64,000 nucleotides of DNA from Thermotogota bacterium (GTDB lineage Bacteria > Thermotogota > Thermotogae > Petrotogales > Petrotogaceae). The position numbers and the translations under genes were made by a program. The stretch spans positions 248,607 through 312,606 of the forward strand of contig JAKOZG010000004.1 in NCBI GenBank assembly GCA_029780115.1, in the 5' to 3' direction. Each line of letters starts with the position of its first letter. The stretch's first letter is position 1. Below the pieces are notes generated by a model. It was not told the origin of the DNA. It made no database searches and worked only from the letters and a program-made list of their open reading frames with translations. This document shows, in pieces, positions 28 through 54,137 of this stretch.

Positions 28-1224
28 ATGGAAGAATTTAACAATTTAATTTCCCAAAACGATGCATTTTTTTTCAGACGATTTCTAATTTTTGCCCTTA
101 TAATTTCGATAGCCACTATTATTCTATCTTATTTTTTAATAAAAGATGTACTTATTAAACCTTTCGGTCATATCTCAGAAATCGTTTCAAAAACCTCTGA
201 AGGTGATTTAAATTTCAAAACTAACGTAACATTTAAAGCAAAAGAATTTGTGGCTTTAAAGACTGCTTTAGAGAAGATGCAAAATGATTTAGCTCGTTTA
301 GTTTCTGATATATCAGGAAAATCTGATCAAATACATAATTTATCTCAAAATTTAGCAGGTACTTCTCAAGAACTCAGCTCAACAACAGAAGAATTTTCTT
401 CTCAGATGGAAGAAATTAACAGATCTGCTCAGAATGCTTCTTCGTCTATACAGGAGGTAACAGCTGGAGTAGAAGAGGTATCTGGAAGTGCTCAGAATGT
501 ATCTAAATCAGCTATGGATTTGGCTCAAAGGGCTGAAATAGTTGATAATGCGGCTAAGGAAGGCGAAGAAGCTGTAAAGTCTATAGTTGAAATTATTCTT
601 CAAACTAAAGAAAAAGCTAGTATTACTCAACAAGCTGTAAAGAGCCTATCTCAAAAAGCTAGAAATATAGGGGAAATAATTGAAGCAATAAATTCTATAA
701 CAGAACAAACAAACCTCTTGGCTTTAAATGCAGCTATAGAAGCGGCTCGAGCTGGAGATGCAGGAAAAGGTTTTGCGGTGGTTGCAGATGAGATAAGAAA
801 GCTAGCAGAAGAAAGCAAAAAAGCCACCGATAAAATAGGATTAATGTTAGATCAGATACAAGATGGTGCTCTACAAGCAAATTCTGCTACAGATGATACA
901 GTAAAAGTAGTGGATGAGGCTAGTGAACGTTCCATTTTAGTAAAAGAAAGGTTTTCGAATATATTAAAAGAAATAGAAAGTATTAATTCAATGATTGAAA
1001 GTTTAGTAGCAAGTGCACAGGAACAGAATGCTGCAGCCCAAGAAATGAATAGTGCAATGAACACAGCCACTGTTTCTATAATGAACATAGCTCAACAGAT
1101 TGAAGAAATGACACAAGCAATCAAACAACAGGCAGATATGAGTCAAAACGTTAACAATTTAAGTGAAGAGTTAAGAATTATAGCAGAAGATTTGGTAGAG
1201 CAAATAAAATATTTTAAGTTGTAA
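28..1224 (+). CDS. Methyl-accepting chemotaxis protein (TM helix, HAMP, MCP signalling domain). The reading frame is open back to position 1, so the true N-terminus and sensor domain may lie upstream of the window.
   Basis: Hydrophobic TM segment [20 protein letters not shown]. Heptad-rich coiled coil. Highly conserved MCP signalling motif [14 protein letters not shown]. No in-frame stop between nt 1 and 28. Confidence 0.85.
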
Positions 1225-1310
1225 AGTTTTATCAAACACATGAATAGTAGGAGAACGATAAGTTTTTTATCCTACCCTTAGTTCTTTATAATTTCAACGT
1301 TGTTAAAGTT

Positions 1311-1919
1311 TCACTCCAAATTTATAAAGTTATTTCCAAGATTCAAATTTTTAACATTATGATTTATATTGCTGAATTCAGAAACTGATTCTTTTTCACT
1401 AATAACTTTGTATAGTTCTGATTTGTTTAAATCTATCTCAATGCCTTTTTCGTTGAGAACTTTGTCGACGGTCTTTTCTAACAGCTCTTTTGAATCAGTT
1501 ATTACAAAAACACTTCCTTCTTTTTTATAATCTTCAACAAAGAATGCAACATTATCTAATTCCTCAGATACTATTTCATCTTTTGCAGCTCCTATAAATA
1601 TTAAATGACGCCTTTTAGGTTTCTTTTTCAAGATGTTACAGATGGTATCATTCCAAATTTCAGGTACAACCATATGAGTAAACGACCTACCTATCCAGTT
1701 TGTTCCATTTGCGATTAATCCATTTATTGTTACTTTTTTTGCATATTTTTCTGGTTCACAGATTAGTTTGAAAAAATATTTTGTCATCAACTTCGGTTCA
1801 CTAGTGTAGATTCCGACTGCTTGACCTTTTTCTAATCTTACTGATGGGAAAGATATTAAAGGTTCTACTATGTCTAAAATAAAACCTTCAGAAGGAGTTT
1901 CTTTAATCATTTTGTACAC
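1311..1919 (-). CDS. Hypothetical protein, translationally coupled to the upstream flavoredoxin gene (17-nt overlap).
   Basis: 202-aa ORF overlapping the 3' end of the flavin-reductase-like gene. No motif I can assign confidently. Confidence 0.45.
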   Translation of the reverse strand: MYKMIKETPSEGFILDIVEPLISFPSVRLEKGQAVGIYTSEPKLMTKYFFKLICEPEKYAKKVTINGLIANGTNWIGRSFTHMVVPEIWNDTICNILKKKPKRRHLIFIGAAKDEIVSEELDNVAFFVEDYKKEGSVFVITDSKELLEKTVDKVLNEKGIEIDLNKSELYKVISEKESVSEFSNINHNVKNLNLGNNFINLE

Positions 1920-2481
1920 CTCTATTGCTTAGAGAATTTCTAATACTAGCAACTATTTCTTTAGTTTCAAATTTTTTAACTTGAGATAGATCGATAGTTG
2001 TAAAAGTATCATTTCCAAGATATATAGCTGGTTGTGATTCTTTTAAAATATTTTTAGAGGGATGAACGGCTAAAACTTTTCCTACAACAAAATCATGATC
2101 CCCTGTTTCAAAGATATTTTCTAGTTTACACTCCATTGAAAAGTATGCTTCTTCAACATAGGGACTTTGAACTATCTCTGAATCCTTTAATTTCAATGAA
2201 ATAGCTGATACCTTATCGCCCTCTCTACCTGAAATTCTGCCTAATTTCACTGCTAAATCACTTTTTTCTAGAGACAAAAAAGATACTGTAAACTCTTCTT
2301 CTTTTAAGATCAATTGGTAAGTATATCTATTTTTCCGGATAGAAAATCCAAATAAGGGTGGATTTGAAGATAAAGGAGTTGACCATGCTACGGTCATCGA
2401 ATTAACGCGCGAAACACTCTTAACGGTTATTAAGCAGACAGGTAATGCTACATTTTCACTAAATCTATTGCAATAATCCAT
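1903..2481 (-). CDS. Flavin reductase-like FMN-binding split-barrel protein (flavoredoxin family).
   Basis: Pattern NSMTVAWSTPLSSNPPLFGFSI is typical of flavin reductase-like domains. Size about 190 aa. Confidence 0.65.
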   Translation of the reverse strand: MDYCNRFSENVALPVCLITVKSVSRVNSMTVAWSTPLSSNPPLFGFSIRKNRYTYQLILKEEEFTVSFLSLEKSDLAVKLGRISGREGDKVSAISLKLKDSEIVQSPYVEEAYFSMECKLENIFETGDHDFVVGKVLAVHPSKNILKESQPAIYLGNDTFTTIDLSQVKKFETKEIVASIRNSLSNRGVQND

Positions 2482-2561
2482 AATGATACCTCCCGTTAGA
2501 ATTATACCACATTGATTTGGTTTTTTGCTTTATGAGAATACTGAAAAACTAAGCAAAAAAC

Positions 2562-2582
2562 AAAAGGGCTTTAAGCCCTTTT
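2562..2582. terminator. Bidirectional intrinsic terminator hairpin (AAAAGGGC-TTTAA-GCCCTTTT) between the FMN-binding protein gene and the flavoredoxin gene.
   Basis: Perfect GC stem flanked by A-run and T-run. Lies 40 nt downstream of the stop at 2623. Confidence 0.6.
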
Positions 2583-2622
2583 GTTCTCCATATGAATTAA
2601 TTTATCTAAACAAATTAAAAAA

Positions 2623-3339
2623 TTAAAATTTGAATCCAGCTTTTATCATTGCATCCTTAACTGCTTCCATCCACATATTTGAACTGCCTGTAGCACCAGT
2701 ATATGTGTCAACTGGAATTGTTCCCTTTTCTAAAATTCTTTGTGCGATAACTACTTTTGCTTCATGGAAAGGTTCCCATGGATAAGTATCTTCTGTTTTA
2801 GGTTCTCCGGTGTTATAAATGTCCCTATATTCATTTAGTATTACATCAACTATCTTACCATCTTTTACAACAATTATCGCATTAGCCCTGTCGTTTCTTT
2901 CAGAAACTTGTGAATGCCCTACATAGGTTCCATCTATTACACCATCAAATCCTTCTGCCCTTTTTAAAGCTCTTTCAACAGCTTGAATAGCCATTTCAGA
3001 AGAATGTGTTGCACCCGTATAAGTATCTATGTTAGTACCGTTTGCCTTAATAAATCTTTTTGGTAGTTCTTCCATTGCCTCATGCCATGGTTGCCATGGA
3101 TAAGATTCATCTTTCGCTAATCCAGTTGTGTTGATAATTTCTTCCAGCTTGACATCAACAATTTTTCCTTTTTCAATAGTTACAACAGCTTTTGTGTAAG
3201 TTCTATCACTTGGATCCGAATAACCAACATATGTCCCGTCTTTCCACGAATTATTCGATTTTCCAAAGAGAGCGGCAAAACTCATTGATACCGTTAAAAC
3301 AACGATTAAAACTAATGCTAGTACTCTTTTTTTGTTCAT
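2623..3339 (-). CDS. Secreted or anchored FMN-binding-domain protein with two tandem FMN_bind repeats (PplA-like), each carrying a [ST]GA[ST] flavinylation motif.
   Basis: N-terminal signal peptide MNKKRVLALVLIVVLTVSMSFAA with no lipobox Cys. Two repeats: DTYTGATHSSEMAIQAVERALKRA and DTYTGATGSSNMWMEAVKDAMIKAG. Repeated KDGKIVDV and YPW(Q/E)PWHEA segments show an internal duplication. Confidence 0.75.
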   Translation of the reverse strand: MNKKRVLALVLIVVLTVSMSFAALFGKSNNSWKDGTYVGYSDPSDRTYTKAVVTIEKGKIVDVKLEEIINTTGLAKDESYPWQPWHEAMEELPKRFIKANGTNIDTYTGATHSSEMAIQAVERALKRAEGFDGVIDGTYVGHSQVSERNDRANAIIVVKDGKIVDVILNEYRDIYNTGEPKTEDTYPWEPFHEAKVVIAQRILEKGTIPVDTYTGATGSSNMWMEAVKDAMIKAGFKF

Positions 3340-3646
3340 TCACTCTCGACCTCCTTTTATTTGTGCATTATTTAACAATAAAAATTGAATTATTTATATC
3401 ACTTTTTAAACTTCTTTTCTAATCTTTATCCTACAATAATTTTATCAAAACTTTGAAGAGGAGTCAAGAACTTTTGCTTTTCTAGTGTATATAAGATATG
3501 TACATTTATAAAATTTTATTGTATTATTAGTTAATTTTATAAAATTAGTAAAATAGAGAGATCTATAAAAGTTCAAATAAAATGATATAATAAATAGTAA
3601 CTAACAGGCTTAAAAAACATGAAATGCAATAGATAAGGAGCATAAA

Positions 3647-4735
3647 ATGGTTGAGTTAATAGCGTTATGTACATCAGGGTTGGAAGCAGCACCTTCTTTT
3701 GAAATAAAAGCTTACGGATATAAAATAATCGACTCGGTGTCGGGCAAAGTAAAATTTTTAGCCCCTCTTGAAGATGTTCCGCTTATATTAAATAGTTTTA
3801 GAACGGTTGACAGGATATTGATAAAAGTAGGAGAATTCGAAGTTACCAATTTTGATGATCTTTTTGATAAGGTTTACAATCTTAATTGGAAAGATTATAT
3901 AGAGAAAAGAGGTAAAGTAGTTATTGAAAAAGTTAAGATAACAAACTCTATTTTATCTGCAACTGGAGCAGTAGCTTCAATAATTAAAAAATCAATTTAT
4001 GAAAAACTAAAAAATAGCTATAAATGTAAAATTTGGGAAGAAAATGAGATAGTTTATCCCATTTGTGTATATTTAAAGGATAATCTAGCAACAATCGCTC
4101 TTGATACAGTACATAAGGGATCACTTGCTAAAAGAGGTTATCGAATTAAACATGTACCTACATCACTTCGAGAAACGATTGCAGCTAGCATGATCCTTCT
4201 TTCCAGATGGGATGCTTCTAAGATATTAATAGATCCTTTTTGTGGTTCAGGAACAATTCCCATTGAAGCTGCATTATTGGCTAGTGGCAAGACATTAAAG
4301 AGAGAGTATATATGTGAAAAATGGGAAATGTTTAAAGATTTGAAGCAAAATTTTTATCCATCTAGGGAACAAAAAGAAATAGATTACAAAATTTATGGCT
4401 ACGACAAAAGTTACAACGCTATATCTATCGCAAAAGAAAATGCAGCTTTAGCCGGAGTTAATATACATCTTGAAAAAAAAGTTATGGAATCGCTCAGTCC
4501 ATCAAATGATATAATTTATTTTGTTTCAAACTTGCCGTATGGCATAAAAGAAAAAGACAATATAGCTGATACTTACCAAAAAATGAGGTACCTATTAAGG
4601 GCTTTTCCAAACGGAAAGTTTTATTTTATTACTCCTGAATCTAAATTTGAAGATTATTTTGGTAGGAAAGCGAACAAAAAATTCAGATTTCAAAACAGTG
4701 GCATTTGGGTTTGGTTCTATATGTTTTATGAATAA
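3647..4735 (+). CDS. THUMP-domain class I SAM-dependent RNA methyltransferase (RlmL/COG0116-like).
   Basis: SAM motif DPFCGSGTIPIEAAL. NLPYG (NPPY-like) catalytic motif. N-terminal THUMP-like region. Confidence 0.75.
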   Translation: MVELIALCTSGLEAAPSFEIKAYGYKIIDSVSGKVKFLAPLEDVPLILNSFRTVDRILIKVGEFEVTNFDDLFDKVYNLNWKDYIEKRGKVVIEKVKITNSILSATGAVASIIKKSIYEKLKNSYKCKIWEENEIVYPICVYLKDNLATIALDTVHKGSLAKRGYRIKHVPTSLRETIAASMILLSRWDASKILIDPFCGSGTIPIEAALLASGKTLKREYICEKWEMFKDLKQNFYPSREQKEIDYKIYGYDKSYNAISIAKENAALAGVNIHLEKKVMESLSPSNDIIYFVSNLPYGIKEKDNIADTYQKMRYLLRAFPNGKFYFITPESKFEDYFGRKANKKFRFQNSGIWVWFYMFYE

Positions 4736-40286: not shown

Positions 40287-40865
40287 ATGTTAGGGGACGA
40301 TTCAATGACAAAAGAGAAAGAAAAAAATAAATTATTTAGCATGTTCTTTACTTTTTTGAAAATAGGCCTTTTCACTTTTGGCGGAGGTTACGCTATGATT
40401 CCACTGATGGAAAAGGAAATAGTTGATAACAATAAATGGTTAGAAAAGGAGAAGTTTACACAAACGGTTTCACTAACCCAAGCAATACCTGGATCTGTCT
40501 CGGTAAATTTATCCATTTTATTAGGATATAATATAGAAGGTGTCTTAGGAGCCATAGTTTCTGCCTTAGGCGTTATTTTACCTTCTTTTGTTATTATTTT
40601 ATTAATTGCTCTTGCTCTTACAAATTTGGGAGAATTAGCTCTTTTAGAAAAAGCCTTTAGTGGAATAAGACCCGCTGTTGCTGCGTTTATTCTATACGCA
40701 GCTTTCAGTCTTTCAAAAAGTATCAATTGGTCAACAATTTTATTTATAATTTTTTTAACTTCTTTCTTCTTGACGACTGTTTTCAATGTAAATCCTATTT
40801 ATATAATTGCTGGAGCTTTTATAATCGGTACCTTATCAAGCAGATTTAATAAAAGAAATAATTAA
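40287..40865 (+). CDS. chrA: Chromate ion transporter ChrA, short-chain (half-size) form. First of a tandem pair.
   Basis: FGGGYAMIPLM CHR motif. Half-size at 192 aa. Confidence 0.8.
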   Translation: MLGDDSMTKEKEKNKLFSMFFTFLKIGLFTFGGGYAMIPLMEKEIVDNNKWLEKEKFTQTVSLTQAIPGSVSVNLSILLGYNIEGVLGAIVSALGVILPSFVIILLIALALTNLGELALLEKAFSGIRPAVAAFILYAAFSLSKSINWSTILFIIFLTSFFLTTVFNVNPIYIIAGAFIIGTLSSRFNKRNN

Positions 40866-40890
40866 CTACTAGAAAGAAAGGATTTTAACC

Positions 40891-41406
40891 ATGCTTACTT
40901 TACTAAAATTATTTGGTACATTTTTTGAAATAGGATTATTTGGATTTGGTGGGGGATATGTGATAATTCCACTTATTCAAGAACATCTAGTAAAGAATAA
41001 TTGGATGAGTATTGAAGAATTTTTAAATTTAGTGGCAATAGCTGAAGTAACCCCTGGTTCCATATCTGTTAATAGTGCCACTTATGTTGGCTATAAGGTT
41101 TATGGTGTTCTTGGCTCTGTAGTTGCAACTTTAGGAGTTATTTCACCTTCTTTAATTGTAGGACTCCTAATTGCCGCTTTTTTTAAAAATGGGACTGGTA
41201 ACACACCACAAAATATACTTAAATTTTTAGCACCAGCAGTTATAGGGTTAATCCTGGGATCAGGTTTTACAATAGGTATTACAAATATTACCTCCTTAAT
41301 TAATTTGTTGATTTTTGTAATAGTTTTATTGCTGTTAGTGTTTACAGATGTGAATCCAATAGTAATCATTATAGCAACAGCCTTAATTGGTATAGTTTTT
41401 GGATAA
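40891..41406 (+). CDS. chrA: Chromate ion transporter ChrA, short-chain form. Second of a tandem pair.
   Basis: FGGGYVIIPLIQEHLV CHR motif. Length 171 aa. Homologous to the upstream gene. Confidence 0.8.
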   Translation: MLTLLKLFGTFFEIGLFGFGGGYVIIPLIQEHLVKNNWMSIEEFLNLVAIAEVTPGSISVNSATYVGYKVYGVLGSVVATLGVISPSLIVGLLIAAFFKNGTGNTPQNILKFLAPAVIGLILGSGFTIGITNITSLINLLIFVIVLLLLVFTDVNPIVIIIATALIGIVFG

Positions 41407-49712: not shown

Positions 49713-51449
49713 TTAAAGCCACTCTCTTTCTAAATAATGAGTATGTAATAATTGTTGTGCCTTTTCGCTTCCTGGTTTTTCTAGGTATTCGTTGTAAAGT
49801 CTTAATATATAAGGATTTTCGTGGGACTTTCTTATTATTTTAGTTCTATCTATAACATTTAATGCATCTATTCTTTTTTTGATTACTTCAAAATTACCAT
49901 GGTGATAAGGTTGACCTCCTCCTCCTACACAACCGCCAGGACAGGCCATAATTTCGATTAAATGAAGATCTATTTTTTTGTCTCTAATAGCTTCCAGCAA
50001 TTTTCGAGCGTTTCCTAAACCATATGCTACCCCAATTTTAATAATTTGACCGTTAATGTCTACTTCTGCAACTCTTAAAGATTCATAACCGTGTAAAGCT
50101 TGGAACTCAACCGTTCTTAATTCTCTTCCAGTTAACCACTCATATGTGGTTCTTAAAGCTGCTTCTGCAACTCCACCTGTTCTTCCAAAGATTGCAGCTG
50201 CCCCAGTCGATTCTCCAAGAGGGTTGTCGTAAGACCTTTCTGGAACAGTTGTAAAATTAATTCCTGCCTCTTTTATCATTTTTGCTAGTTCTCTAGTTGT
50301 TAATACGTAATCAACATCTTTATAATCTGGGCTGGAGTTTATTTCTTTTCGAGAAGCTTCGTATTTTTTGGCTAAGCATGGCATAATAGATACTACTGTA
50401 ATATTTTTAGGTTCCAGATTAGCCTTTTGGGCATAATAACTTTTTACTATAGCACCAAACATCTGTTGAGGAGATTTTGCAGAAGAAGGCATTTCTATTA
50501 AATCCGGGAATTGGTGTTCCAAAAACTTTATCCATCCTGGACAACATGAAGTCAGCATAGGTAGAAAACCGTCGTTTTCAAGTCTTTCTTTAAATTCTGT
50601 AGCTTCTTCAATTATAGTAAGATCTGCACCAAAGTTAGTATCGAAAACCTTGTCGAATCCTAGTAATTTTAATGCACCAACTAATTTTCCAGTAGAAATA
50701 GTTCCTGGCTCAAATCCAAACTCTTCTGCCAAGGCTACTCTGACAGCAGGTGCTGTCTGAACAACAACATGCTTTTTTTCGTTTACCAAATCTTTCCATA
50801 CGTAGTCAATATATGAATCCTCTTCTAATGCACCTGTTGGACATACTGCAACACACTGACCACAGAAAGTACAAGCCGTTTCTTCTAAAGGCAAATCAAA
50901 AGTAGGTTTAATAACAGCGTTGAATCCCCTCTCTACAGCTGATAAAACTCCTACTGTTTGAAAATCATTGCACATTGTTTCACATCTTCTACACATTATA
51001 CATTTATTAGGATCTCTTATAATTGCTGTGGAAATATCTTGTTTGTAGTTTGTTGTTTTTCCCATGAAAGGGTTTTTCACTATATTAAGTTCAGAAGCAA
51101 TTCTTTGAAGGTCGCACTCACCATTTTTTGGGCATTGCAAACAATCTTGTGGATGGTCTGATAGAAGTAATTGAATAGCAGTTCTTCTAGCTTCAACTGC
51201 TTGTCTTGAAAGTGTGTTTATTCTTAATCCTTCCGAAACTGGTGTAGTACAAGCTGGAGCTAATGATTTTCTACCTTCTATTTCAACCATACAAACTCTA
51301 CACGATGAAGGTTTATTTTCTATGTTAATATCCTTTAAATTTAAATAGCACAAAGTCGGTATGTAACCACCGAATTTTTGAACTGCAGTCAAAACAGTAT
51401 CATTTTCAGAAGCTTCAAACTCATCTCCATTTATATAAATTTTGGGCAT
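49713..51449 (-). CDS. hydA: [FeFe]-hydrogenase catalytic subunit (H-cluster plus N-terminal 2Fe-2S and 4Fe-4S ferredoxin domains).
   Basis: H-cluster motifs L1 TSCCPGW, L2 IMPCLAKKYE and L3 EIMACPGGCVGGGGQP. Cys-rich N-terminus. Confidence 0.9.
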   Translation of the reverse strand: MPKIYINGDEFEASENDTVLTAVQKFGGYIPTLCYLNLKDINIENKPSSCRVCMVEIEGRKSLAPACTTPVSEGLRINTLSRQAVEARRTAIQLLLSDHPQDCLQCPKNGECDLQRIASELNIVKNPFMGKTTNYKQDISTAIIRDPNKCIMCRRCETMCNDFQTVGVLSAVERGFNAVIKPTFDLPLEETACTFCGQCVAVCPTGALEEDSYIDYVWKDLVNEKKHVVVQTAPAVRVALAEEFGFEPGTISTGKLVGALKLLGFDKVFDTNFGADLTIIEEATEFKERLENDGFLPMLTSCCPGWIKFLEHQFPDLIEMPSSAKSPQQMFGAIVKSYYAQKANLEPKNITVVSIMPCLAKKYEASRKEINSSPDYKDVDYVLTTRELAKMIKEAGINFTTVPERSYDNPLGESTGAAAIFGRTGGVAEAALRTTYEWLTGRELRTVEFQALHGYESLRVAEVDINGQIIKIGVAYGLGNARKLLEAIRDKKIDLHLIEIMACPGGCVGGGGQPYHHGNFEVIKKRIDALNVIDRTKIIRKSHENPYILRLYNEYLEKPGSEKAQQLLHTHYLEREWL

Positions 51450-51467
51450 CTAAATATTACCTCCTGA

Positions 51468-52925
51468 TTAAACAATTTTAATTGCATTAAATCTACAAGT
51501 AGAATAACAAGAACCACACTTAATACATTTTGTTTGGTCTATAAAATGAGGTTTCCTCAATTCGCCACTTATAGCTTGTGTAGGGCAAACTCTTGCACAA
51601 GCAGTGCATCCTTGACAGTTTTGTGGAATAACTTCATATCTGATTAAATTCTTACAAATACCTGCAGGACATACCCTGTCTAAGATATGAGCTTTGTACT
51701 CATCTTCAAAATACTTAAAAGTAGAAAGAACAGGGTTAGGTGCTGTTTGTCCCAATCCACATAACGAAGAATTTTTTATAACATTGGAGAGAGAAATCAT
51801 TCTTTCCAAGTCCTCTAAATGGGCGTTTCCAGAAGTAATTTTTTCTAATATTTCTAACAGCCTGACATTACCAATTCTACAAGTTGTGCATTTTCCACAA
51901 GATTCATCAACTGTGAATTGAAGATAAAATTTTGCCACATCTACCATACATGTATCTTCGTCCATGACAATCATTCCGCCAGATCCCATCATTGATCCTA
52001 AATTTTGAAGACTATCATAATCTATTGGTGTATCGAGATATTCAATAGGAATACAACCGCCGGAAGGTCCCCCAGTCTGGACAGCCTTAAATTTTTTGTC
52101 TCCCTTAATTCCACCACCAATATCAAAAATAATTTCCCTTAAGGTTGTTCCCATGGGAACTTCTACTAAACCAACATTTTTTACGTCTCCAGCTAAAGCG
52201 AAAACTTTTGTGCCAGGGGAATTTTTAGTACCATATTGTCTGAACCAATCTGGGCCATTAAGTATTATAGGGGCAATATTAGCGAAAGTCTCAACATTAT
52301 TTATTAAAGTAGGTTTTCCCCATAAACCACTTGTAGAAGGAAATGGTGGCTTATTTCTAGGTTCGCCTCGTGATCCTTCAATCGAATGAATTAAAGCTGT
52401 TTCTTCTCCACATACAAAGGCACCAGCACCCAACCTAATTTCTATGTCAAAAGAAAAACTGGTTCCTAGAATATTTTCTCCAAGCAATCCAAATTCTTTT
52501 GCCTGACAAATAGCATTTTTTAATCTTTCAACTGCTAGAGGATATTCTGCTCTGATATAAATAATACCTTTTTTTGCTCCTACGGCATAACCTCCAATAG
52601 TCATTCCTTCAAGAACGGAATGAGGATCTCCCTCCAAAATAGATCTGTCCATAAAAGCACCAGGGTCTCCTTCGTCGGCGTTGCATATAACATATTTTTC
52701 ATCGCCTTTTGCTTGCATAGTAAATTTCCATTTTAAACCAGTTGGAAAACCCCCTCCACCTCTGCCTCGTAAGTTAGAAGAAGAAATAATATCAATCACT
52801 TCTTCCCTCGTCGACTCAAGAGCTTTTGCTAGCGCTAAATAACCATCGTTTTTTAAATAATCTTCTATATTTTCCGGATTAATATTTCCAGCGTTTCGTA
52901 ATACAATACGTATTTGTTCACACAT
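51468..52925 (-). CDS. hydB: Hydrogenase NAD(P)H-binding flavoprotein subunit (NuoF-like, with C-terminal 2x[4Fe-4S] ferredoxin domain).
   Basis: NuoF-like FMN/NADH motifs [15 protein letters not shown] and [13 protein letters not shown]-terminal CxxCxxCxxxCP. SD GGAGGT 8 nt before the ATG. Confidence 0.9.
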
Positions 52926-53049
52926 TATTTTACCTCCACTTATATAACTAATTCTATTTTTGATATTATGAAATGCTAGTAGCTAATTTATTATTTAGAT
53001 AAATTCTAAATTTTTAACGCAATTTGCTTTCTTTCTTCTTTTTAAAAGG

Positions 53050-53100
53050 GAAAGTAAGAGGGCTGCCGCCCTTGAACCCGCTTAAATTTAAAACTCAGCT
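53050..53100 (-). repeat. Copy A of a conserved intergenic element. Minus-strand core TTTAAATTTAAGCGGGTTCAAGGGCGGCAGCCCTC.
   Basis: Near-identical core to copies at 56700-56790, 59105-59165 and 59195-59262. Same orientation relative to the flanking minus-strand genes. Confidence 0.8.
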
Positions 53101-53112
53101 TCTAAAGATTGA

Positions 53113-53490
53113 CTACAAAACTATCTTATGAGTTTCATGGACAATAAGTTCTTTCACTATTTTTCCTTCCATTAAATGATTATAAACAATATCATGAACC
53201 TTAGATTTTGTTACAAAACCATATAATATAGGTTCTTTTCCTGGTTCATTAACTTCAACGGTAGGTTCGGCATAACAATATCCCAAGCATCCTGTTTTTA
53301 TTACTTCTACGTTTTCTAGTTTAGTTTCATTAATAACTTTTAATAACTCATTAAAAGTTTCCTCTGCCCCAGAAGAGATTCCACAAGTTCCTAAGGCTAC
53401 CTTCAAATAAGTAGTTTTATTTTCACTATCATTTTTTTTAAGAGTAGCTACCAAATTTCTTAATTCATCGATACTATTTAACTTAGACAC
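53113..53490 (-). CDS. Thioredoxin-like ferredoxin-fold small protein. Possibly a detached N-terminal domain of HydB, since HydB homologues in related taxa are about 140 aa longer.
   Basis: 125 aa with NuoE-like CGIS...GCLGYCYAEP pattern, but only 3 Cys. Lies between hydC and hydB on the same strand. Confidence 0.55.
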   Translation of the reverse strand: MSKLNSIDELRNLVATLKKNDSENKTTYLKVALGTCGISSGAEETFNELLKVINETKLENVEVIKTGCLGYCYAEPTVEVNEPGKEPILYGFVTKSKVHDIVYNHLMEGKIVKELIVHETHKIVL

Positions 53491-53630
53491 AAAAGTTCCC
53501 TCCTATTTTATAAAGGTTTTAGATTAACATTTTTGAAAAAAGGTTCTTCATTGGGTAAGATTTCGCTGTGTTACATTTTAATTTCAAGGTATTATTATTC
53601 ATAAAATCTATCTTCTTCTAAGGTTTTTAT

Positions 53631-54137
53631 CTATTGATTTTCTTTACTTGTATATTCTCTAATAATTTTTCTAACATCTGAAACTTTTAGTCTCCCGTAA
53701 GTATCTTCACCAATTTTTACAACTGGAGCTAGACCACACGCACCCAAACATCTAACTGGATGAATTGAGAATAAACCATCTTCTGTAACTTCCTCTGGTT
53801 CAATATTTAAAAATTTTTTAAATTCATCATAAATTAAGTTTGCCCCCGCAACATAACAAGCGGTCCCCAGACAAATATTAATAGGATATTTTCCACGAGG
53901 TTTTGTAGAGAAAAAATTATAAAATGTAACTACTCCATATACTCTAGAGACGTGTATTTTTAGTTTCTGTGCAATGAGCTTCTGAACTTCTGTTGGAATA
54001 TAACCTATATTTTCTTGTGCTTTATGAAGAATTTGAATGAGCAAGCTTTTTCTTTGTTCATCGGTATAACCCTCTACATCTATTGATTCAAGATATTCTC
54101 GGAATGTTTCTAATTTGTGTTCATAAACTTTTTCCAT
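53631..54137 (-). CDS. hydC: Hydrogenase NuoE-like [2Fe-2S] subunit.
   Basis: NuoE motifs ICLGTACYVAG and VRCLGACGLAPVV. Length 168 aa. Confidence 0.85.
   Translation of the reverse strand: MEKVYEHKLETFREYLESIDVEGYTDEQRKSLLIQILHKAQENIGYIPTEVQKLIAQKLKIHVSRVYGVVTFYNFFSTKPRGKYPINICLGTACYVAGANLIYDEFKKFLNIEPEEVTEDGLFSIHPVRCLGACGLAPVVKIGEDTYGRLKVSDVRKIIREYTSKENQ

Follow-up and report, generated by a model that had tools for sequence, protein, structure and literature searches.

The minus strand of the 64,000-nucleotide stretch of Defluviitoga DNA analysed here (the window) carries, side by side, genes for a 238-aa protein with two FMN_bind domains, a flavoredoxin-type protein and a 199-aa protein. 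The locus raises the question of whether an exported flavoprotein acts as an extracytosolic electron carrier in Defluviitoga, a dominant hydrolytic fermenter of thermophilic biogas plants, and whether the adjoining genes belong to the same system. If it is an electron carrier, such a periplasmic di-flavin protein could bear on the disposal of reducing equivalents by Defluviitoga, and could serve studies of the uncharacterised multi-flavinylated class as a compact, thermostable model with two flavins. At present, the protein is annotated as an 'FMN-binding protein' (100% identity to the database entry 'FMN-binding protein [Defluviitoga sp.]') and belongs to an already published class.

Domain architecture and export signal

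The ORF (2623..3339, minus strand) encodes a 238-aa protein that matched the PF04205 FMN_bind profile in two stretches, scoring 59 bits where the cut-off is 22 (E = 7e-16). Domain 1 comprises residues ca. 31-129 (2953..3249, minus strand) with the motif D105-T-Y-T-G-A-T111, and domain 2 residues ca. 133-238 (2626..2943, minus strand) with D211-T-Y-T-G-A-T217. At 44% identity (BLASTP, E = 1e-25), the two halves bear out the internal duplication seen in the initial reading of the sequence, and YPW(Q/E)P(W/F)HEA and DTYTGAT are each found in both. The AlphaFold2 model (pLDDT 92, pTM 0.83) had 3O6U, 8P2A and 8P2B as top structural matches.

The codons for residues 1-22 (3274..3339, minus strand) were read as a signal peptide with predicted SPase I cleavage between SFA and AL. 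The N-terminus, MNKKRVLALVLIVVLTVSMSFA followed by AL, has an n-region charge of +3, a hydrophobic core of 17 residues, and small residues at -3 and -1 (S20 and A22), and by eye resembles a classic Sec signal. In the model, the N-terminal helix (residues 3-24) is of low confidence and detached from the fold, and an N-terminal signal or lipobox is found in each of the 22 family members aligned. The protein contains zero Cys residues, hence no lipobox Cys. The arrangement of an N-terminal signal sequence followed by two tandem FMN_bind domains, as originally predicted, was thus retained.

ApbE, FAD export and probable flavinylation

The flavinylation motif Dxx[S/T]GA[S/T] occurs twice in the protein, as DTYTGAT, and A110 and T111 of domain 1 and A216 and T217 of domain 2 are invariant in the alignment of 22 homologues. 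From alignment offsets, T111 corresponds to Thr67 of CbFMN4-D1 (8P2B), which carries covalent FMN in the crystal (PMC10339131). Judging from the alignment, the expected FMN-bearing residues are T111 (codon 3007-3009) and T217 (codon 2689-2691), the Thr of G-A-T; of the motif DTYTGAT[HG]SS proposed initially, DTYTGAT was present in each domain, and the last Ser gave way to this Thr as the expected site. Because the protein is predicted to be exported, has two FMN_bind domains and keeps the motifs intact, it very probably serves as a substrate of ApbE, with T111 and T217 as the flavinylated residues, and the intact motifs together with an ApbE gene in the genome make the anticipated modification by an ApbE/Ftp-type transferase very likely.

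No ApbE was found in the 64-kb window by tblastn with two ApbE-context proteins (best E = 4), as foreseen. The cognate enzyme is encoded elsewhere in the same genome: ApbE P0144 is a 346-aa protein with a PF02424 match and an N-terminal transmembrane anchor, and shares 49% identity with T. maritima TM1553. The refuting case named in the initial reading, a genome lacking any ApbE/Ftp homologue, thus does not apply. Its co-residence with the FMN_bind gene rests on the matching longest contig of 795,038 bp, which is common to P0144 and the FMN_bind, flavoredoxin, ProA and 199-aa proteins, and on the shared metagenome samples; the GC percentage for P0144 is 32.5, against 31.6 in the window. At this locus, separate from that of the FMN_bind gene, apbE is followed by genes matching PF07009 and then PF07456, which represent EetA and EetB, the latter a FAD-export ECF-S component (PMC9973259). 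ApbE genes also adjoin the FMN_bind homologues of Serpentinicella (locus L005) and of Dehalococcoidia (L027, together with riboflavin genes and ECF subunits).

The best explanation, which we regard as probable, is that the protein is an exported, soluble periplasmic di-flavin carrier, loaded by ApbE and separate from the flavoredoxin pair. Sec would export the soluble protein to the periplasm under the toga with removal of the signal peptide, and the two CPE2226-like domains would be packed as one compact unit. The outward-facing, membrane-anchored ApbE would move FMN from FAD, probably provided by the EetB-type ECF exporter encoded beside apbE, to T111 and T217 as phosphoester links. With both flavins in place, the protein may then carry electrons outside the cytosol as a member of the 'multi-flavinylated protein' class, and Rnf would be its most plausible membrane electron donor.

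Relatives, origin and alternative roles

Multi-FMN_bind proteins have been counted as 2081 in 1530 genomes (Meheust et al. 2021, eLife, PMC8238504), the class being defined by more than one FMN-binding domain together with a signal peptide or lipidation site, and the Defluviitoga protein has both. It shares with the described multi-flavinylated proteins (PMC8238504; Huang et al. 2024, mSystems, PMC11334425; SaFMN3 and CbFMN4, Tong et al. 2023, PMC10339131) the predicted export, the presence of more than one FMN_bind domain with Dxx[S/T]GA[S/T] in each, an ApbE in the genome, and an uncharacterised function; 8P2A and 8P2B are structural matches to its model. It differs from the class in having only two domains with predicted tight packing (pTM 0.83) instead of beads on a string, in the CPE2226-type insertion K-D-x-x-Y-P-W...H-E-A of these domains, in the lack of an adjacent apbE or membrane partner gene, and in its host, a toga-bearing Thermotogota species. 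Clostridium perfringens CPE2226 (3O6U) was the top match per domain in both sequence (E = 8e-4) and fold (Foldseek E = 4e-6, 28% identity), and it has in common with the Defluviitoga domains an additional excursion and helix preceding helix 1 and the conserved flavin-binding Thr, whereas it consists of a single FMN-bind1 domain instead of a tandem of two. CPE2226 is itself uncharacterised and crystallised without FMN (PMC10339131). By these comparisons, the protein fits within the published, functionally uncharacterised multi-flavinylated class, closest to CPE2226.

When 1.84 billion representatives were searched exhaustively, the identity range of 48%-76% to the FMN_bind protein was empty. 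The Defluviitoga clade nested among Bacillota and Dehalococcoidia sequences in a neighbour-joining tree drawn without support values, and the GC percentage of the gene (35.8, against ca. 31) is a weak foreign signal only. The D. tunisiensis homologue was found on 499 contigs. A contig scan of genomes for FMN_bind homologues returned no Defluviitoga, though D. tunisiensis carries the gene, and absence from other Thermotogota is therefore not claimed on the scan alone. On the evidence of the sequence searches, the gene is within Thermotogota confined to Defluviitoga, and because it groups with Bacillota homologues, horizontal acquisition from a Bacillota-type donor is likely. The notion of a protein unusual in Thermotogae applies only in that the subfamily is Defluviitoga-specific, as ApbE is widespread among the named Thermotogota matches. 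Among the closest relatives, in Halanaerobiaceae, the FMN_bind genes are single or tandem duplicates beside housekeeping genes. Recurrent neighbour families (LysM, Rex, metallophosphoesterase and others) were considered as functional partners and rejected: since they occur solely within a single clade of Bacillota MAGs whose gene order is closely syntenic, the recurrences reflect relatedness, not function.

In an unlikely alternative, the protein would be a detachable Rnf accessory, i.e. a soluble RnfG-like extension giving Rnf electrons a second exit to the periplasm, a branching of the kind proposed for multi-flavinylated RnfG by Meheust et al. (PMC8238504). Like RnfG and NqrC, it has an FMN_bind fold and a flavinylation-site Thr in S/T-G-A-T context, and it gave weak RnfG model matches; the scores against the RnfG/NqrC profiles (25.3, 18.2 and 17.6) are far below the respective cut-offs (205, 230 and 102), and it differs in having two domains and no rnf or nqr operon context. 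Rnf subunit transcripts have been reported in a D. tunisiensis-like bin (PMC6011919), and RnfD-RnfG fusions with multiple FMN_bind domains exist in Rnf-type operons of Halanaerobiaceae. In Defluviitoga, however, the FMN_bind gene is unlinked to rnf genes, none of which was found within 10 kb on either side, and the giant Halanaerobiaceae fusions were rejected as close relatives because their ordinary repeats are without the YPW...HEA insertion. The accessory role is in any case a special case of the preferred periplasmic carrier and does not contradict it.

A further extension of the preferred carrier, in which a Bacillota-derived periplasmic di-flavin shuttle is loaded through apbE-eetA-eetB and reduced by Rnf for flavin-based electron disposal outside the cytoplasm, is at this stage a long shot. 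Sulfur or thiosulfate, Fe(III), and syntrophic partners in digesters would be candidate acceptors, and, if true, Thermotogota would gain their first described case of an extracytosolic electron outlet based on flavinylation. Our literature search on Defluviitoga, extracellular electron transfer and flavins returned nothing specific.

No transmembrane electron-transfer partner genes were found at the FMN_bind locus, nor at most homologous loci, and the lack of redox partner genes near the homologues in most genomes would agree with a periplasmic flavin-binding protein without electron transfer, serving flavin storage or scavenging or acting as an oxidant-scavenging buffer. One homologue adjoins an ECF riboflavin-type S subunit (locus L007), and reduced SaFMN3 reacts with O2 (PMC10339131). 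Yet the covalent-attachment motifs are strictly conserved, and a fixed cofactor is therefore favoured over cargo; moreover, the characterised ApbE-flavinylated FMN_bind domains are all electron carriers (PMC8238504), which makes a storage or buffer role improbable.

The original prediction placed the protein with the PplA-type flavoproteins of flavin-based extracellular electron transfer in Firmicutes. In a chain like that of Listeria monocytogenes, it would be the terminal flavoprotein and receive electrons from NDH-2 through a quinone pool, with the genes for both elsewhere in the genome. The gross architecture is alike, with two ApbE-type FMN_bind domains and an extracytosolic location (predicted here), and the genome also encodes ApbE (FmnB-like), EetA-like and EetB-like proteins. 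However, the protein reached 32.5 bits with the PplA equivalog model (NCBIfam NF041941), whose cut-off is 325, and matched only at residues 134-185; its domains are of the CPE2226 type; and it has a plain signal peptide with no lipobox, whereas PplA has a lipoprotein signal. None of the Listeria EET locus (ndh2, dmkA/B, eetA/B, fmnA/B) surrounds the Defluviitoga gene, no ndh2, dmkA or dmkB was found at either the FMN_bind or the apbE locus, and apbE-eetA-eetB clusters are used by Rnf and other systems as well (PMC9973259). Judging from the profile scores and gene content, the protein is not a PplA orthologue, and a PplA-type role is quite improbable.

Transcription units and the flavoredoxin pair

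The FMN_bind gene is proposed, on its flanking signals, to form its own transcription unit. Upstream, a promoter-like site (3439..3467, minus strand) consists of TTGACT, a 17-nt spacer and TG-TAAAAT, and is the top consensus match of the region (10/12, with an extended -10 TG); both hexamers are kept in D. tunisiensis with diverged flanks. Downstream, the intrinsic terminator anticipated between the FMN_bind and flavin-reductase-like genes proved real (2554..2590, minus strand), with a 17-pair stem, a 3-nt loop and a T-run, of which the stem core and T-run are kept in D. tunisiensis. A search for FMN or other riboswitches in 1100-3800 gave only sub-threshold chance matches overlapping the terminator.

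Besides this conserved terminator, the region between the two genes contains a conserved TGnTATAAT element, read as the extended -10-like TGTGGTATAAT (2501..2511, minus strand) 5' of the flavoredoxin gene, around which D. tunisiensis has the same 13-nt block, TTGTGGTATAATT, between diverged flanks. The element would serve the neighbouring transcription unit and not the FMN_bind gene, although its promoter function is only inferred, because the implied leader is very short.

The flavoredoxin gene (1903..2481, minus strand) encodes a cytoplasmic, flavin reductase-like protein of 192 aa, which matched the Flavin_Reduct profile PF01613 with 120 bits against a cut-off of 27 (E = 1e-34), in agreement with the split-barrel assignment made earlier; among solved structures it comes closest to the flavoredoxins 1USC (E = 7e-20), 2D5M and 3BNK. 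The 199-aa protein gene (1311..1910, minus strand) follows, and neither product has a signal peptide. The neighbours of the FMN_bind gene further include rlmL, proA, proC, purB and an MCP gene.

That the exported protein, the flavoredoxin and the 199-aa protein constitute a single extracellular or periplasmic electron-transfer unit is very improbable: they are same-strand neighbours in both Defluviitoga lineages whose loci were read, and all are flavin-related or of unknown function, but no membrane-spanning component lies between the compartments, and the reading is largely refuted by gene-order history. At the same syntenic proA...pheS site in related Petrotogaceae (loci L068-L071), the flavoredoxin/199-aa pair is present and the FMN_bind gene absent, and Flavin_Reduct adjoins the FMN_bind gene at 0 of ca. 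57 homologous loci from taxa outside Defluviitoga. Because the flavoredoxin lacks a signal peptide, is separated by the conserved terminator and promoter-like element, occurs in its pair elsewhere without FMN_bind, and is never adjacent at these loci, it is not a partner; the juxtaposition is an accident of gene order, the module envisaged by the original prediction falls apart, and both downstream genes were judged to lie outside the feature.

The translational coupling suggested for the pair stood in part. The overlap with the flavoredoxin gene was confirmed, and translation more probably begins with the ATG at 1910 than with the GTG that would give 202 aa. This ATG has a Shine-Dalgarno-like AGAGGTG on its 5' side and was also used in metagenome gene calls; it yields 199 aa and an overlap of 8 nt with the end of the flavoredoxin gene (ATGATTAA). 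The 199-aa protein, which is restricted to Petrotogaceae, had no Pfam match, and its model (pLDDT 78) has a degenerate ABC nucleotide-binding-domain-like fold, the top Foldseek matches being ABC-transporter NBDs (E ~1e-6, identity 10-13%). Assignment as an ABC transporter ATPase was rejected, as the Walker A motif GxxGxGK[ST] is missing, the P-loop position reads GIYTSEPKL, and the likeness is one of fold only. Homologues of this protein formed 7 clusters only, all from Defluviitoga or 'Petrotoga sp.' MAGs.

A predicted exported protein with two FMN-binding domains

Three ORFs were read on the minus strand of positions 1311-3339. The ORF at 2623-3339 (-) encodes a 238-aa protein that matched Pfam FMN_bind in two stretches (59 bits, gathering score 22), and its two halves, 44% identical to each other (BLASTP E = 1e-25), each contain a DTYTGAT and a YPW(Q/E)P(W/F)HEA segment. 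The N-terminus (MNKKRVLALVLIVVLTVSMSFA, cleavage before AL) reads as a Sec/SPase I signal, with positive charge, hydrophobic core and small residues at -3/-1. The original prediction of a signal peptide followed by two tandem FMN_bind repeats was thereby confirmed at the sequence level, with a correction of the FMN-accepting residue.

In the AlphaFold2 model made from the family alignment (pLDDT 92, pTM 0.83), two beta-3/alpha-2 domains pack against each other and the N-terminal helix is detached. Foldseek searches of the PDB with this model returned 3O6U (Clostridium perfringens CPE2226) first, followed by 8P2A and 8P2B, which are domains from proteins shown by experiment to be multi-flavinylated (PMC10339131). 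The domains, of about 105 aa each, match the compact FMN-bind1 type in size (PMC11334425), and, like CPE2226, have an additional excursion and helix (PMC10339131).

The protein had been described as PplA-like. It is, however, neither PplA nor RnfG, as it scored 32.5 bits against the cut-off of 325 for the NCBIfam PplA equivalog, and 17-25 bits against cut-offs of 102-230 for the RnfG models; containing no cysteine, it is not a lipoprotein either. With more than one FMN_bind domain and a signal it falls under the published definition of multi-flavinylated proteins, and thus adds a member to an already described class, for which Meheust et al. gave a count of 2081 proteins across 1530 genomes, leaving the function open (PMC8238504).

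Flavinylation site and machinery

The predicted flavinylation motif, Dxx[S/T]GA[S/T], is indeed present twice, but the expected acceptor is the G-A-T threonine (T111, T217) and not the last Ser as first proposed. The HMMER alignment with PDB 8P2B, by its offsets, makes T111 the counterpart of Thr67 in CbFMN4 domain 1, to which FMN is covalently attached in the crystal (PMC10339131). Across 22 aligned homologues, Ala and Thr were invariant in both GAT motifs, and all 22 carried an N-terminal signal peptide or lipobox.

As stated originally, no ApbE was found in the window, and the search was therefore extended beyond it with residues 21-298 of Thermotoga maritima ApbE (TM1553, PDB 1VRM), rebuilt from a PDB alignment. 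ApbE was common among the named Thermotogota matches. For one ApbE of 346 aa, P0144, the longest contig measured 795,038 bp, the same figure as for the FMN_bind, flavoredoxin, ProA and 199-aa proteins of the window, and P0144 was present in the same JGI sample (3300009653), with a GC percentage of 32.5 vs 31.6 for the window. Since its N-terminus consists of a positively charged stretch and a transmembrane helix, the catalytic domain should face outward. Directly after the P0144 gene follow a PF07009 and then a PF07456 gene, families called EetA and EetB by Rivera-Lugo et al. (PMC9973259, Data Set S1), EetB being the ECF-S subunit which exports FAD for extracytosolic flavinylation (PMC9973259). 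The Radical_SAM, apbE, PF07009 (EetA-like) and PF07456 (EetB-like FAD-export ECF-S) genes overlap or abut at L072 9027-11930, a locus of the same Defluviitoga genome outside the window, and this run is likely the organism's operon for flavin export and transfer. Absence of ApbE from the genome had been named as evidence against the original prediction; with P0144 and the EetA/EetB-family genes found, machinery for loading the 238-aa protein is present, making the protein a sound candidate ApbE substrate with putative flavinylation.

Following Sec export and signal cleavage, membrane-anchored ApbE would move FMN from exported FAD onto T111 and T217, giving a soluble periplasmic two-flavin carrier, for which Rnf would be the most plausible membrane electron donor; we infer all parts of this scheme from the flavinylation step on. 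Transcripts of Rnf subunits have been reported from a bin resembling D. tunisiensis (PMC6011919).

The flavoredoxin gene pair

The downstream ORF at 1903-2481 (-) encodes, as predicted, a flavin-reductase-like protein (Flavin_Reduct PF01613, E = 1e-34), with the flavoredoxins 1USC, 2D5M and 3BNK as the closest solved structures. For the last ORF the likeliest start is ATG 1910, preceded by the Shine-Dalgarno-like AGAGGTG and also chosen by metagenome gene callers. The gene proposed as coupled does run into the flavoredoxin stop, with an 8-nt overlap (ATGATTAA), and the product is likelier to be 199 than 202 aa long. Homologues of this protein formed seven clusters only, all in Petrotogaceae, with genes at 1311-1910 (-) in the window and at L068 8001-8507, L070 2616-3224 and L076 7421-8020 in compared loci. 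The gene always directly follows flavoredoxin, by 8-nt overlap or 1-nt gap, and the two are a conserved two-gene unit. The flavoredoxin gene at L070 2047-2623 is broken into two ORFs of 65 and 115 aa, by a frameshift or by an error of the assembly. The 199-aa model (pLDDT 78, one of five models confident) matched ABC-transporter nucleotide-binding domains (NBDs) in Foldseek (E ~1e-6, 10-13% identity), and the protein has no Walker A motif or Pfam match; it appears to be a degenerate NBD-like partner of flavoredoxin, probably without catalytic activity.

The reading of a PplA-like electron-transfer module including flavoredoxin was not supported. Neither flavoredoxin nor the 199-aa protein has a signal sequence, and no membrane protein lies between them and the predicted exported protein. 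The expected intrinsic terminator was located after the FMN_bind stop codon (2590-2554 (-), 17-pair hairpin and T-run). This hairpin, a promoter-like TTGACT-17-TGnTAAAAT site upstream of FMN_bind, and an extended -10-like block (TTGTGGTATAATT) followed by GGGAGGT upstream of flavoredoxin are all kept in D. tunisiensis amid diverged flanks, which indicates a probable monocistronic FMN_bind unit and then a bicistronic unit. Between rlmL and the FMN_bind promoter, another intergenic block conserved with D. tunisiensis (3489-3547) contains, besides a GTAC-centred palindrome, a perfect inverted repeat of 11 nt (TTTATAAAATT, 17 nt, AATTTTATAAA); the block may be a site for a regulator, or a chance product of AT-rich sequence.

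A 'Petrotoga sp.' MAG has the pair (63% and 56% identity, identical 8-nt overlap) at the same syntenic position, between proA-proC-purB-lon and pheS-pheT-rhomboid, and has no FMN_bind gene anywhere across the 13 kb locus; in a second relative the pair is likewise syntenic without FMN_bind. The FMN_bind gene was therefore inserted later beside an existing pair. Among 57 loci of FMN_bind relatives from other species none had an adjoining Flavin_Reduct gene, the sole match lying 9.5 kb off, and unbiased clustering of homologue neighbours gave no functionally meaningful conserved partner.

Distribution and contexts of homologues

The 238-aa protein has an exact match in 'FMN-binding protein [Defluviitoga sp.]' (100% identity; MAGs, anaerobic-digester metagenomes), and the D. 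tunisiensis copy CEP77587.1 (86% identity) was seen on 499 contigs with the gene order of the window. Among 1.84 billion cluster representatives searched exhaustively with HMMER, 831 were relatives at E <= 1e-3 and 32 at E <= 1e-30, with a gap in identity from the Defluviitoga cluster (76%) to the next match (48%). Named relatives were from Halanaerobiaceae, other Bacillota and Dehalococcoidia, and a neighbour-joining tree without support values placed the Defluviitoga clade beside a Dehalococcoidia sequence and a Halanaerobiaceae group. The simplest reading of these sequence data is that the Defluviitoga lineage acquired the gene horizontally. The species-genome scan gave no Defluviitoga locus though CEP77587.1 of D. 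tunisiensis L3 fits the search pattern, so the scan is not exhaustive and its absences need caution.

The informative contexts point to flavin trafficking: the Serpentinicella homologue has a divergent apbE directly upstream, and an ECF riboflavin-type S component adjoins one Bacillota MAG homologue. No other context found for the family is as flavin-rich as that in a Dehalococcoidia MAG (L027 317-13524), where riboflavin-synthesis-like genes and ApbE are joined in one stretch by two membrane-protein ORFs, a two-FMN_bind homologue and ECF transporter subunits. These contexts support ApbE-dependent maturation, and name no donor or acceptor.

Two Halanaerobiaceae MAGs (L054 6353-11914, L057 6470-11185) encode giant proteins of 1571-1853 aa, with an N-terminus RnfD-like by inspection and then an FMN_bind repeat array (eight exact GA[TS] sites in the 1571-aa protein), followed by genes for small hydrophobic RnfE-like and RnfA-like proteins; these are examples of multi-flavinylated RnfG. 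Elsewhere in the window, a HydABC-type [FeFe] hydrogenase cluster (49713-54137 (-)) comprises HydA-like (578 aa), NuoF-like (485 aa) and NuoE-like 2Fe-2S (168 aa) proteins and an unassigned ORF of 125 aa. A split ChrA-type transporter pair is encoded at 40287-41406 (+) by two neighbouring half-size Chromate_transp (PF02417) genes of 192 and 171 aa.
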